DNA of 40,489 nt from a virus (IMGVR_UViG_2693429662_000008); one strand, 5' to 3'. Shown: positions 1,575-33,554, numbered from the stretch's first letter. Notes: a model not told the origin generated them from the sequence alone. A program made the numbers and translations.

Positions 1575-1650
1575 GGCCCTTTAGCTCAGTGGTTAGAGCA
1601 GGCGACTCATAATCGCTTGGTCGCTGGTTCAAGTCCAGCAGGGGCCACCA
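1575..1650 (+). tRNA. ileY: tRNA with CAT anticodon, most likely tRNA-Ile2 (lysidine-modified, ileX/ileY type); prophage integration target
   Basis: 76-nt sequence GGCCCTTTAGCTCAGTGGTTAGAGCAGGCGACTCATAATCGCTTGGTCGCTGGTTCAAGTCCAGCAGGGGCCACCA has a 7-bp acceptor stem, anticodon loop CTCATAA and terminal CCA. It matches my memory of E. coli ileX/ileY rather than elongator tRNA-Met. The ileY symbol is inferred from neighbouring gene context and is less certain than the tRNA call. Confidence 0.85.
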
Positions 1651-1653
1651 AAT
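1605..1653. repeat. Prophage attachment core (copy inside the intact tRNA 3' end)
   Basis: 49 bp ACTCATAATCGCTTGGTCGCTGGTTCAAGTCCAGCAGGGGCCACCAAAT repeated at 33506-33554 with one mismatch (G to A). Confidence 0.85.
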
Positions 1654-1678
1654 TTTAGCTTTATAATCATATAATTAA

Positions 1679-1702
1679 GCCACTCTAGCGAGTGGCTTTT
1701 TT
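1679..1702 (+). terminator. Rho-independent terminator downstream of the tRNA
   Basis: Stem GCCACTC / GAGTGGC with loop TAGC, followed by TTTTTT. Confidence 0.6.
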
Positions 1703-1767
1703 GTTATCTTGTTTTCAAGTGGCGATGAAATGGCGGTGGATTTTTTACCACCACTTTCATGAGCACA

Positions 1768-1792
1768 TAAAAAAACCCGCGCGCGGCGGGTC
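1768..1792 (-). terminator. Rho-independent terminator downstream of ogr
   Basis: Minus strand reads a GC-rich hairpin (CCCGCCGCGCGCGGG) followed by a T-run, directly after the ogr stop codon. Confidence 0.6.
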
Positions 1793-1807
1793 TTTAGAGA
1801 AAATTTA

Positions 1808-30186: not shown

Positions 30187-30207
30187 AAATACCCAAAGGA
30201 ATAAATT

Positions 30208-30783
30208 TTGATACTTGATACTCAGGTGAATAACGACGAGTTACTGGATAGAATCTGTCAAGTATATGGTTTTACTCAAAAAATCCAGCTAGCCCGGCAT
30301 TTCAATATTGCCGCCAGTTCCCTACAAAACCGCTACACGCGAGGCACTGTTTCTTATGATTTTGCCGTACAGTGCGCATTAGAAACCGGGGCAAGCCTAC
30401 TATGGCTTCTTACGGGGCAAGGCTCTCAATATGACGGCAAAAAGTCTCCAACGGATCCGAAAACGATAGACGCCTTCACTCTTAGTGATGGAAAGCTCGA
30501 AGAAAATTCACCATTGAGTATTGATGCTGGTTTCTTTAGTAAGCAAATGTCAAAAGGTATTGCTGTTCGCGCCGATGGAAAGCTGCACTTTATAGAACAA
30601 GATGCCTCACTTTCTGATGGCCTTTGGTTGGTTGATATTGAGGGGGCTACCAGCATCAGAGAATTGACGCTCCTACCCGGTAAAAAGTTACACGTTGCTG
30701 GCGGCAAAGTACCGTTTGAGTGCGGGATAGATGAGATAAAAACGATTGGCCGTGTAGTGGGTGTATACAGCGAGGTTAATTGA
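30208..30783 (+). CDS. cI: CI immunity repressor (186 CI type)
   Basis: 191 aa; helix-turn-helix region (QKIQLARHFNIAASSLQNRYTRG) and conserved C-terminal domain (LSDGLWLVDIEGATSIRELT...GRVVGVYSEVN). TTG start with AAAGGA 7 nt upstream; a GTG at 30226 is an alternative. Confidence 0.85.
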   Translation: MILDTQVNNDELLDRICQVYGFTQKIQLARHFNIAASSLQNRYTRGTVSYDFAVQCALETGASLLWLLTGQGSQYDGKKSPTDPKTIDAFTLSDGKLEENSPLSIDAGFFSKQMSKGIAVRADGKLHFIEQDASLSDGLWLVDIEGATSIRELTLLPGKKLHVAGGKVPFECGIDEIKTIGRVVGVYSEVN

Positions 30784-31787
30784 TGACTGTCCGTAAAAAT
30801 CCGGCTGGCGGTTGGATTTGTGAGCTCTACCCAAACGGTGCAAAAGGCAAACGTATCAGAAAGAAATTCGCTACTAAAGGCGAGGCGCTGGCGTTTGAGC
30901 AGTACACCGTTCAAAACCCGTGGCAGGAAGAAAAGGAAGACAGGCGCACGTTAAAAGAGTTGGTTGATTCATGGTATAGCGCTCATGGCATTACACTGAA
31001 AGACGGCTTGAAACGCCAGCTAGCCATGCACCATGCTTTTGAGTGTATGGGCGAACCACTTACACGCGATTTCGATGCGCAGATGTTTTCCCGCTACCGA
31101 GAAAAACGGTTAAAAGGCGAGTACGCCCGTTCAAACAGAGTGAAAGAGGTATCGCCTCGCACGCTTAATCTTGAGCTGGCCTACTTCCGGGCTGTGTTCA
31201 ATGAGCTAAACCGCCTCGGAGAATGGAAGGGTGAAAACCCACTGAAAAACATGCGCCCATTCCGCACAGAAGAAATGGAAATGGCCTGGCTGACTCACGA
31301 CCAGATTTCGCTACTGCTCGGAGAGTGTAAACGGCATGACCACCCTGATTTAGAAACTGTGGTAAGAATTTGTCTCGCCACTGGCGCACGGTGGTCTGAG
31401 GCCGAGAACCTGAGAAAAAGCCAGCTTGCGAAATACAAAATCACATACACCAACACGAAAGGCAGAAAAAACCGCACCGTTCCAATTAGCAAAGAGCTCT
31501 ATGATTCTCTGCCTGATGATAAAAAAGGCAGGTTGTTTAGTGATTGTTATGGCGCGTTCCGGTCTGCGCTGGAAAGAACAGGCATCGAATTACCGGCAGG
31601 GCAACTTACCCATGTTTTACGCCACACCTTCGCCAGTCACTTTATGATGAATGGTGGTAATATTCTGGTCTTGCAGCGCGTGCTCGGTCATACCGACATC
31701 AAAATGACAATGCGTTACGCACATTTCGCCCCAGACCATCTGGAGGATGCAGTAAGGCTAAACCCACTGAACAACAACAGAGATTAG
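30780..31787 (+). CDS. int: Tyrosine integrase (P2/186 integrase family)
   Basis: 335 aa; C-terminal catalytic motifs HVLRHTFASHFMMNGG and LGHTDIKMTMRYAHF (R/H-x-x-R...Y); start overlaps the cI stop. Confidence 0.9.
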   Translation: MMTVRKNPAGGWICELYPNGAKGKRIRKKFATKGEALAFEQYTVQNPWQEEKEDRRTLKELVDSWYSAHGITLKDGLKRQLAMHHAFECMGEPLTRDFDAQMFSRYREKRLKGEYARSNRVKEVSPRTLNLELAYFRAVFNELNRLGEWKGENPLKNMRPFRTEEMEMAWLTHDQISLLLGECKRHDHPDLETVVRICLATGARWSEAENLRKSQLAKYKITYTNTKGRKNRTVPISKELYDSLPDDKKGRLFSDCYGAFRSALERTGIELPAGQLTHVLRHTFASHFMMNGGNILVLQRVLGHTDIKMTMRYAHFAPDHLEDAVRLNPLNNNRD

Positions 31788-31797
31788 CCCCATTAAG

Positions 31798-33261
31798 TCA
31801 TTTGCCGAGCATCTCTCTTAAATCTTGAGCCCAATGCGTATCGTCAGATTGGATCGTTCCTTCAACATCAGTAAGCAGTTTTTGCTCAAGAATTGTCTCG
31901 GCATTTCGACTCTGGCTAAAGTATCTTACCGTTTCGGCAAAGTCCCAATTCTCATCTGCAAGCAGGCGCGGCTGGAAAGAATGACAGTAGATTGCAGCTA
32001 TATCTTTACCCATAAAGTCAAAATCAGAAATCAATTCGCAAATTTTCATATCACGTGCAAATTCGATCTGAGGGCCATGCAAGGTTTCATATCCAATATG
32101 AATTATTGTTGATTCTCCAATCGGAGCCTGCTTTACAGCCTGAACAAGTACCCTTTTTATATCTTTTGCCTTTTTATCGACAGACTCATCAGCGAGACAA
32201 ATCCATTTTGCGCAGAAAGGCATTTCTATCTCATCAATGAATACATTTATTGTACTAAGTTCATCATTGCTAAAAGTGCATAACTTTGCGTTGCAAACCA
32301 TTGTATAACTTCCAAACGGGTCATACTGGTCATCTAATAAGGAATTTAATTGAGGAGAAGGATATTTCACATGCCACTTTCTTAAGTGGTTATCCACCCG
32401 TTCCATATCAATTAAGTTAGCCTGAACCAAAATATCATCGCTCTCACATACTGCAATCTTACCTTTCACAAGATGATCAGAGCCGTAAATTTTTGCTACA
32501 GCACCGAGAAACACATCGATACGCGTTTTTACTATTTCAGTTTTGAAAATCACATCAAAAAAAACTGGCTTATGGTATCGAGTAATCAATGGTCGAGCCA
32601 TTTCCCACCGCTTCAACCACTCCGCCCTTTCTTCTTCTGAGTACTGAGTCACCTTTGCTAATCGCTTGCACTCAACATAAAAAATATCAGTGCCTTTAAC
32701 AACTTTGAGGTCTGGTGTTTTATGAGCTCCTGTTTCTGGAATGAACTCAACTTCCCAGCCATTTTTCAAATAGCAGATAGCCACAACCAACTCAAACAAA
32801 ATGGAATCAGGCTGGTTGATTGTCTTAACAAGCAAGTCATTTAATTTGGATTCAATACCTTTGACCTGCTTCAACTTTTCGCTATGTTCACCGATAACTG
32901 CGAAAAAATGCCAAATTCTTGACGACTGAGCTGGCTCATCTACTGTTGGGCGATCAGCCAAAGATTCAACTAAGTACAAATACCATGCAATCCAGTCATC
33001 ATAGAATGCCAGGCGTGCATCTTTCTCATGGAAAGAAACGTCAGATTTTCCTGTGAAAAGGCGCTCCGACATTTCGCGGAAGTAAGCCAAAACCGCCCCA
33101 CGACGCTCAACCCATTTATCTTCACCCATTACATCAATAAACCAACGGTATGCTGTTTTTATCTCTTTGACTAATGGTGCATCATGTCTATGATTGAAGC
33201 GTTCAAAAAATGCAGCATACTCATCTTCAACACTCTGATTTTTGGTATTTTTTTCACCCAT
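31798..33261 (-). CDS. Cargo gene: large protein with a PD-(D/E)xK nuclease motif, candidate defence/abortive-infection nuclease
   Basis: 487 aa from the ATG at 33261 (AGGTGGA upstream; the ORF-track start at 33294 is an alternative). Motif FELVVAICYLKNGWEVEF...TPDLKVVKGTDIFYVECKRL fits the E...PD...(D/E)xK pattern. No P-loop seen. AT-rich; lies between int and the distal att core, convergent with int. Confidence 0.75.
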   Translation of the reverse strand: MGEKNTKNQSVEDEYAAFFERFNHRHDAPLVKEIKTAYRWFIDVMGEDKWVERRGAVLAYFREMSERLFTGKSDVSFHEKDARLAFYDDWIAWYLYLVESLADRPTVDEPAQSSRIWHFFAVIGEHSEKLKQVKGIESKLNDLLVKTINQPDSILFELVVAICYLKNGWEVEFIPETGAHKTPDLKVVKGTDIFYVECKRLAKVTQYSEEERAEWLKRWEMARPLITRYHKPVFFDVIFKTEIVKTRIDVFLGAVAKIYGSDHLVKGKIAVCESDDILVQANLIDMERVDNHLRKWHVKYPSPQLNSLLDDQYDPFGSYTMVCNAKLCTFSNDELSTINVFIDEIEMPFCAKWICLADESVDKKAKDIKRVLVQAVKQAPIGESTIIHIGYETLHGPQIEFARDMKICELISDFDFMGKDIAAIYCHSFQPRLLADENWDFAETVRYFSQSRNAETILEQKLLTDVEGTIQSDDTHWAQDLREMLGK

Positions 33262-33505
33262 CGTGATTCCACCTAGCTTATGCGGTTTATGCATTCAAGA
33301 TTAACTAACTTGCATGTTATCATTTTTGATATCAGGCAAGTGTTAGTCACGCTATAAAGGCTAGGTTGCCGTTTAAAGGCAATATGATAAGTGGCGATAA
33401 AGTGGCGGTAGAAATGGCTGATAATGTCTAATCACTGGCAAACGCTGGCCATTTATGTCAATGATAAATAAAGCAAACTATTGATTTTCGGTTGTTCAGG
33501 TAGGA

Positions 33506-33554
33506 ACTCATAATCGCTTGGTCGCTGGTTCAAGTCCAGCAAGGGCCACCAAAT
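33506..33554. repeat. Prophage attachment core (distal copy, partial tRNA 3' end)
   Basis: Direct repeat of 1605-1653 with one mismatch; sequence upstream of it is unrelated to the tRNA 5' half, so this is a partial tRNA duplicate typical of integration into a tRNA gene. Confidence 0.85.

Follow-up and report, generated by a model that had tools for sequence, protein, structure and literature searches.

The viral sequence IMGVR_UViG_2693429662_000008 is a stretch of 40,489 nucleotides (the window, to whose positions all coordinates refer) that carries an intact tRNA gene near its start and a second copy of the 3′ portion of that gene 31.9 kb further on. How a segment of this size came to lie in a tRNA gene that is left whole, which of the two copies was brought by the inserted DNA, and whether the insertion can leave again are the questions raised by this locus. 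The segment is very probably a temperate myovirus of 31.9 kb, P2-like and of the phage 186 type (Peduoviridae, Eganvirus-like), integrated in the 3′ half of the Escherichia coli tRNA gene ileY.

The tRNA gene and its direct repeat

The only tRNA in the window was located by ARAGORN at 1575-1650 on the plus strand (76 nt, anticodon CAT), and the Rfam tRNA model matched 1575-1647 on the same strand with 71.6 bits, in agreement with the intact tRNA of the original prediction, which had been made from the sequence alone. In the annotations of the Prokaryotic Genome Annotation Pipeline (PGAP) a tRNA-Ile gene stands at the same coordinates in E. coli strain 10, and the gene is likewise tRNA-Ile in K-12; it is ileY, which encodes tRNA-Ile2. 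The ARAGORN label tRNA-Met, derived from the CAT anticodon, was rejected as a naming artefact. This anticodon is that of the lysidine-modified, AUA-reading tRNA-Ile2.

A search for repeats revealed a 49-nt direct repeat on the plus strand, with a tRNA-proximal copy of the attachment core at 1605-1653 and an integrase-proximal copy at 33506-33554, which are 98% identical and spaced 31,901 nt apart. The repeat consists of the last 46 nt of the tRNA and the three bases downstream of it. Base-by-base comparison showed a sole mismatch, at repeat position 37 (G1641 in the first copy, A33542 in the second), which corresponds to position 67 of the tRNA, and beyond the 49 nt the similarity between the copies ends at once on both sides. 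The coordinates and description of the repeat given in the original prediction were exact, and the tyrosine integrase gene (30783-31787, plus strand) does read toward the distal copy, as had been noted there.

The host locus and the empty site

Both flanks were found by BLAST to match E. coli chromosomes at 99.9-100% identity. The window is collinear, coordinate for coordinate, with the chromosome of E. coli strain 10 (NZ_CP048330.1, from 1120923); two positions differ within the repeat-bounded segment, and outside it the first ~83 and the last ~90 bases also differ. The order of the locus is glaH, an amylase pseudogene, ileY, the insert, ypjC, a pinH remnant, and ypjA. The guanine-plus-cytosine (GC) content of the flanks, 36-37% compared with 51% in the prophage, prompted the idea of a low-GC host of the Proteus or Pasteurellaceae type, which was rejected on the BLAST results, since the region ileY-ypjC-ypjA, to which the flanks belong, is AT-rich in E. 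coli itself.

A bacterial attachment site (attB) was reconstructed by joining the left flank and the 5′ part of the tRNA (to 1604) to the distal copy and the right flank (from 33506). Comparison with strains lacking the prophage at this tRNA had been proposed as a check, and the joined flanks showed 100% identity, along 437 bp, with the unoccupied ileY locus of K-12 MG1655 and with many other strains. In K-12 the tRNA-Ile gene directly adjoins ypjC, and an unoccupied ileY site therefore exists; the attB junction was matched over at least 80% of the query in 2914 of 5426 complete E. coli genomes.

These results also bear on whether the repeat is meaningful at all. A chance match, an unrelated tRNA pseudogene or an error of assembly could each leave a second copy of a tRNA 3′ end. 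The chance expectation for a pair of 49-mers with at most one mismatch in 40 kb is ~4e-19, precise removal of the DNA between the repeats regenerates the sequence of thousands of genomes, and the same junctions recur in independently assembled complete genomes, the integrase-side junction being present in 43 of them. Such accounts are refuted by these three observations and are left with a negligible probability; absence of the repeat from an accurate reassembly, named in the original prediction as one outcome that would speak against it, is the opposite of what these genomes contain.

The phage attachment site and the crossover

The complementary junction was reconstructed by joining the inner ends of the segment (to 33505, then from 1605 on). 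The resulting phage attachment site (attP) aligned with coliphage 186 at 87.4% identity over 341 bp, exactly at the annotated 186 attP. The attP features of the 186 record (U32222 / NC_001317) comprise a truncated 46-nt tRNA-Ile, a predicted 7-bp crossover, a 36-bp stretch shared with E. coli attB and located in the 3′ end of ileY, two terminators, Int arm-type sites arranged 3 + 2 with the consensus YAYCGCCAYTY, five Apl sites, and two IHF footprints. In a three-way alignment the tRNA fragment (46/46), the common core (36/36) and the crossover (7/7) of the window attP were identical to those of 186, and the two terminators aligned with 24/28 and 21/22 identical bases. The "36 bp in common" of the 186 record is the distance from position 31 to the same mismatch, so this feature of the repeat was already on record for 186. 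No phage record was found to contain the present attP at ≥99% identity over most of its length. With an outer join that is the K-12 empty site and an inner join that is a 186-type attP, the repeat does bound the prophage, as had been proposed.

Alignment to the crossover annotated in 186 places the predicted 7-bp strand-exchange (overlap) region in the anticodon loop, CTCATAA, at 1606-1612 on the plus strand, with its distal counterpart at 33507-33513; the two core copies are identical across it. Strand exchange within this loop is a prediction, as it is in the 186 record, where the crossover is also labelled "predicted". All that can be read from the segregation of the G and the A in the two copies is a crossover somewhere 5′ of tRNA position 67.

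Origin of the two core copies and the hybrid tRNA

The mismatch had been thought to mark which core copy is derived from the phage, and comparison with 186 and K-12 adds the direction. Since the 186 attP carries G at tRNA position 67 and the K-12 attB carries A, the G1641 copy that completes the tRNA can be assigned to phage DNA and the distal A33542 copy to the displaced 3′ end of the host ileY, an assignment that on these comparisons we regard as settled. The opposite assignment, with the tRNA copy belonging to the host and the distal copy to the phage, has nothing to support it except that a direct repeat is symmetrical a priori. It is refuted by the K-12 empty site, in which A67 is contiguous with the right-hand flank, and by 186, in which G67 is contiguous with the same P′-arm sequence that follows the tRNA here; A67, moreover, restores a Watson-Crick pair with U6. 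It deserves practically no credence.

On the preferred assignment, ileY (1575-1650) is a hybrid gene, in which positions 1-31 are of host origin (together with the 7-nt anticodon loop that both parents share) and the sequence from ~1613 on is supplied by the phage, while the distal copy from ~33514 on is the original 3′ end of the host ileY, continuing into host downstream DNA. In the empty site the host U6 pairs with A67, whereas in the ileY of the lysogen it forms a U6-G67 wobble; both versions have the same predicted fold (-34.1 and -33.8 kcal/mol). That this change measurably alters the function of tRNA-Ile2 is considered less likely than the nuclease role proposed below for a cargo gene. 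The phage fragment is identical to positions 31-76 of a second type of E. coli tRNA-Ile2 gene, which has a C6-G67 pair and was matched at ≥99% identity in at least 5023 records. We take this second type to be ileX; the matches themselves are annotated just as tRNA-Ile. Both ileY and ileX are listed for 186 in MG1655 (Nilsson and colleagues, PMC3448106).

Integration can be pictured as follows. In its attP the phage brings the portion of the tRNA that runs from position 31 through the CCA end, and the tyrosine integrase is predicted to exchange strands within the 7-bp anticodon loop. The 5′ third of the host tRNA is thereby fused to the phage-supplied 3′ two-thirds, giving a working hybrid tRNA with a U6-G67 pair, followed by a phage terminator, and the original host 3′ end is displaced by 31.9 kb to a place beside the integrase. 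The two copies of the repeat are thus homologous but differ in origin, and insertion did not duplicate anything. Excision would need Int and the excisionase Apl, with the arm sites on either side of each junction as their targets. In near-identical genomes, PGAP annotates a 105-nt "tRNA-OTHER" at the positions corresponding to 33447-33551; this is the displaced 3′ two-thirds of ileY together with phage P-arm DNA, and no gene.

Arm-type sites and control elements at the two junctions

On the tRNA side, the hybrid gene is directly followed by DNA that aligns with an IHF footprint of 186 (1650-1676, P′ side), which is poorly conserved (18/27 aligned bases), and by a phage-borne intrinsic terminator at 1677-1705 on the plus strand, directly behind the hybrid tRNA in the prophage. 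This terminator corresponds by alignment to the 186 "terminator of lysogenic operon" (the one with 24/28 identical bases) and may end the tRNA transcript. Further inward lies the P′-arm (1717-1738, plus strand) with two tandem Int arm-type sites, AAGTGGCGATG at 1717-1727 and AAATGGCGGTG at 1728-1738, both of which were found by motif and alignment and match the 186 consensus, here read as RARTGGCGRTR, exactly.

On the integrase side, the P-arm (33389-33421, plus strand) contains two exact Int arm-type sites, AAGTGGCGATA and AAGTGGCGGTA, at 33389-33399 and 33400-33410, and a degenerate one at 33411-33421 that aligns with the third 186 site. When one mismatch is allowed, the motif is weakly enriched across the window (18 matches, 9.8 expected) and is not statistically persuasive by itself; the assignment of the arm sites therefore rests on the alignment to the annotated 186 attP. 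The adjoining DNA (33415-33479) aligns with the five Apl sites of 186 and with an IHF footprint (26/30 aligned bases). The Apl-site DNA was scored as one aligned region (36/47 aligned bases); the Apl protein itself is 100% identical to that of 186.

Gene content of the prophage

The limits set by the repeat enclose 31,901 bp. The first phage gene at the tRNA-side end (1808-2026, minus strand) encodes a late-gene activator homologous to 186 B and P2 Ogr, with 86% amino acid identity to 186 B. It is followed by a virion and lysis module of the P2/186 type (2066-23462), which was delineated with PGAP and with tblastn searches using the 186 proteins. The genes are arranged in the order D, U, tape measure, E/E′, tube, sheath, fibre and fibre assembly, I, J, W, V, a cargo island, S, R, LysC/LysB, lysozyme, an open reading frame (ORF) at the holin position, X, L, M, N and O, followed by P and Q on the plus strand. 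Most of these virion and lysis proteins were found by tblastn to be 60-82% identical to their 186 counterparts; the tail fibre shows 44.7% identity over 289 of 462 residues and the fibre-assembly protein 40% over 61 residues. No homologue of the 186 holin or endolysin was detectable in the window by tblastn, and their positions are held by ORFs of another type (16671-16892, and a lysozyme at 16178-16687). A cos-like site at 23639-23657 on the minus strand, GGCGTGGCGGGGATAGCAT, agrees with the 186 cohesive end in 18 of its 19 bases.

The early lytic operon (25767-30075, minus strand) consists of apl, cII, fil, dhr, small ORFs, and the replication gene A, and its products are nearly those of 186: by tblastn, identity is 100% for Apl, 98.8% for CII, 96% for Fil, 97% for Dhr, and 93% for A. 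The CI immunity repressor (30208-30783, plus strand; 191 residues) has the 186-type domains and is 66% identical to 186 CI, and the integrase next to it aligns with 186 Int along 329 of 336 residues at 97.9% identity, with the Pfam Int_N and Phage_integrase domains both above their cut-offs. Altogether, 35 of 42 186 protein queries were recovered in the window by tblastn, among them three partial matches: Tum (residues 1-67 of 146), the tail fibre (1-289 of 462), and Orf45 (106-166 of 166). The proteins of orf69, orf81, orf83, orf84 and orf97 were not found in the window by the same search; orf81, orf83 and orf84 are marked as not essential in the 186 record.

In the PGAP annotation of the strain 10 copy, which is two single-nucleotide differences apart, all P2/186 genes are intact, and tum is the sole pseudogene of the prophage. 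The full gene set claimed in the original prediction is thus borne out, with the genes for morphogenesis, lysis, replication and regulation intact and with Int, Apl and cos present. At the nucleotide level the virion half is ~76% identical both to Yersinia Eganvirus phages and to P2. None of the deposited phages covers 80% or more of the structural half, and the best reaches 54% coverage at 76% identity.

Induction and excision

The SOS module (25441-25686, minus strand) consists of a LexA box and a tum gene that is cut short. The LexA box, CTGTATAAACATACAG, lies at 25671-25686, ~20 nt upstream of the tum start; it fits CTGT-N8-ACAG perfectly and is the sole perfect box in the window. The tum ORF (25441-25650) encodes 69 residues, compared with 146 in 186, and 55 of 67 aligned residues (82%) are those of the 186 Tum N-terminus. 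Past about residue 58 the two proteins no longer agree, and the DinI-like half is missing: this half and orf97 are replaced by low-GC DNA with an acyltransferase gene. PGAP labels the gene an incomplete "DinI family protein", yet what is left of it is the antirepressor half, not the DinI-like one. The tum genes of Fels-2 and PSP3 are split in two (Lemire and colleagues, PMC3121763), and the upstream half of PSP3 tum is reported to carry antirepressor activity, as a personal communication cited in PMC3121763; a shortened tum is therefore not in itself a bar to induction. That LexA and Tum mediate SOS induction here is plausible, but it is uncertain because the N-terminal half of Tum alone remains. 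Of the suggestion that the prophage is possibly inducible, the part that concerns the switch has gained a perfect LexA box, and the part that concerns the antirepressor has lost ground, since tum stops after 69 codons and not 146.

Excision competence seems likely, because the structure of the element is complete. Both junctions carry arm sites, and Int and Apl are intact and nearly identical to the functional 186 proteins.

Several points weigh against an active temperate phage. The tum gene is reduced to 69 codons, and CI has only 66% identity to 186 CI, so that an action of Tum on this CI is putative. The DNA aligned to the Apl sites and the IHF footprints of 186 is partly conserved (36/47; 26/30 and 18/27). 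The exact 80-nt attP junction of this phage had no match among metagenome contigs, and a generic 57-nt attP pattern of the 186 family retrieved ten IMG/VR loci, including 186 itself and none from this phage; several of the ten lie at contig ends and may be junctions of prophages at other sites. Excision and the formation of virions are predictions from the sequence. In addition, the near-identity of the carriers described below is explained equally well by vertical descent within a single lineage and by recent spread.

An alternative is that the phage was inserted as described and has since become a domesticated prophage, non-inducible or non-excising, that is kept for its cargo genes. The short tum and the loss of orf97 to the low-GC acyltransferase island would agree with this, as would a CI that has fallen to 66% of 186 CI while the N-terminal half of Tum stands at ~82%, the lack of an excised form of this phage in IMG/VR and the metagenome contigs, the 99.9-100% identity of 37 carriers in the tested module, and the decay seen in related strains (deletions, apparently IS1-associated, that spare just a truncated int together with the cargo gene and the junction, and a remnant of 726 nt in each of three duck strains). 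However, Int, Apl, CII and A are full length and share 93-100% of their residues with 186 proteins that are functional, no gene for morphogenesis or lysis is damaged, cos and all the arm-type Int sites are present, and, if the reported antirepressor activity of the PSP3 half is a guide, a 69-residue Tum may still work. Domestication is therefore judged unlikely, and an intact temperate phage of the 186 type is the preferred reading.

Distribution and decay in E. coli

Of 5426 complete E. coli genomes, 37 (~0.7%) were found to carry the module that runs from CI through int and the cargo gene to the P-arm, with 99.9-100% identity. No copy of this prophage was seen at ileX among these E. coli carriers, the genomic position of the module having been checked in some of the 37. 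For this lineage, the exact prophage limits are the practical gain of the analysis; the tRNA is now named correctly as Ile2, not Met, and the "tRNA-OTHER" of PGAP is accounted for by the displaced tRNA 3′ end.

Decayed forms were also encountered. In E. coli MSB1_1D (NZ_LR898868.1, 1053229-1068178) and HCP8S3_I1, what remains is a 5′-truncated int, the gene for the 487-residue cargo protein described below, and the integrase-side junction. No ileY is annotated in either strain, and both would therefore rely on the other tRNA-Ile2 gene. In MSB1_1D an IS1 element abuts the truncated int, which suggests an IS1-associated deletion. In the three duck isolates, the 726-nt remnant is all that is kept.

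Cargo islands

Three islands of low GC (37-40%, compared with 51% for the whole prophage) were identified, between gpA and gpQ, within the tail genes, and between int and the attachment site, positions that are accessory or defence hotspots of P2-like phages (PMC9122126, PMC13586616). The third island holds a cargo gene between int and attP (31798-33261, minus strand), in the place of 186 orf69, whose uncharacterised 487-residue product has an invariant PD-(D/E)xK nuclease core within an architecture that is otherwise unmatched. The protein had no match in Pfam, NCBIfam or PADLOC, and Foldseek returned nothing significant in the PDB. At E ≤ 0.001 there were 206 homologues, most of them from Gammaproteobacteria and some from Bacteroidota, and the invariant residues of the family include P183-D184 and E197-C198-K199. 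The homologues are solitary cargo genes, found in lambdoid prophages of E. coli and Proteus, at the edge of a Vibrio prophage, and beside the integrase of a Pseudomonas integrative element. It is tentatively suggested that the gene might encode a new single-gene anti-phage (superinfection-exclusion) nuclease, located at the integrase-attachment-site edge of mobile elements.

The island in the tail genes (37% GC, between V and S) encodes an octameric membrane protein of the 8xMP / RipA family (12676-13389, plus strand; Pfam PF24838, E=3.6e-36) and a borderline DUF4238 protein (13658-14734, minus strand), which scored 27.8 bits with a cut-off of 27. Neither protein was matched by PADLOC. A single DUF4238 protein from a P2 hotspot has been reported to protect against T7 (PMC9122126), and a literature search on 8xMP and RipA octameric proteins returned nothing relevant. 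In the hotspot between gpA and gpQ, beside cos, the low-GC DNA encodes a membrane acyltransferase of the Acyl_transf_3 family (23930-25147, minus strand; 405 residues), which may be a lysogenic-conversion gene that modifies surface polysaccharide. The flagging of three cargo islands at P2 hotspots, one with an uncharacterised nuclease-like gene that is a candidate for an anti-phage role, is a further use of the analysis.

Flanking host sequences

The first ~83 bases of the window have no match in strain 10 and match strain SW070919, where a transposase of the IS5-like ISKpn26 family is annotated under the match; the window start is probably the edge of an insertion sequence (IS) located in the amylase pseudogene. 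In the downstream flank, ypjC (34302-35675, YpjCB family) is split into two ORFs by an internal stop, and a pinH-like recombinase fragment lies at ~36012-36179. Both pseudogenes are unrelated to the prophage, because the same pseudogenes are found at the K-12 empty site. The remainder (36458-40489) belongs to the ypjA/ehaD autotransporter adhesin gene, which contains internal repeat families of ~54 nt and 24 nt and a proline-rich (P-x-P) linker with a 12-nt period, especially at 40133-40240 and 40400-40489. The alignment with strain 10 loses its register from 40400 onward, suggesting that the length of this linker is polymorphic.

Comparison with known systems

The integration system described here is already known biology and nothing new: it is that of coliphage 186 (Eganvirus ev186), at a known attB in a known host species. 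The phage that carries it has not been described before, yet as a mosaic related to 186 and P2 it belongs to a very familiar kind. What the locus offers is little new biology and a clean, fully resolved case of tRNA-targeted integration, which matches 186 down to the single base that differs between attP and attB. The two phages share the host species, the attB in ileY, the tRNA fragment, the core and the predicted crossover, as well as the 3 + 2 layout of the Int arm sites. In both, int stands on the attP side that has three arm sites and the Apl sites, the gene order runs from B (Ogr) at one end to int at the other, and a LexA-controlled tum locus occupies the same place.

The differences from 186 lie in the repressor, the virion and the accessory genes. 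CI is 66% identical, so immunity probably differs from that of 186; the structural proteins are mostly 60-82% identical, and the tail fibre 45%. Here orf69 is replaced by the 487-residue gene, orf81, orf83, orf84 and orf97 are absent, tum is cut short, the holin and endolysin are of another type, and two further low-GC cargo islands are present, in a genome of 31.9 kb compared with 30.6 kb.

The order of the virion, lysis and replication genes, the Ogr-type activator and the cos type are shared with P2 (Peduovirus P2), as is ~76% nucleotide identity over 44% of the structural half, and the cargo islands occupy known P2 hotspots. In P2, a short C repressor and Cox take the place of CI, Apl and CII, and the phage is not known to be SOS-inducible, whereas regulation and integration are served here by a module of the 186 type. 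In PSP3 and Fels-2, the antirepressor half of tum is a separate short ORF, and the 69-residue Tum is comparable to it in size and position; there, a DinI-like ORF follows the stop, whereas here the DinI-like half is deleted and foreign low-GC DNA stands in its place, a likeness drawn from their description.

The locus also fits a wider pattern among elements that target tRNA genes. Integrases of the 186 type tend toward tRNA targets, with long cores that keep the tRNA intact (PMC3448106). Elements that use the anticodon loop, such as HP1 in tRNA-Leu and many islands, carry the 3′ portion of the tRNA, from the anticodon stem to the CCA end, by which the gene is restored, and a partial tRNA copy is left at their far end, likewise here (PMC3448106). 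In many genomic islands the integrase gene adjoins the intact tRNA, whereas here, as in 186, int stands beside the displaced copy, with a cargo gene between the two.

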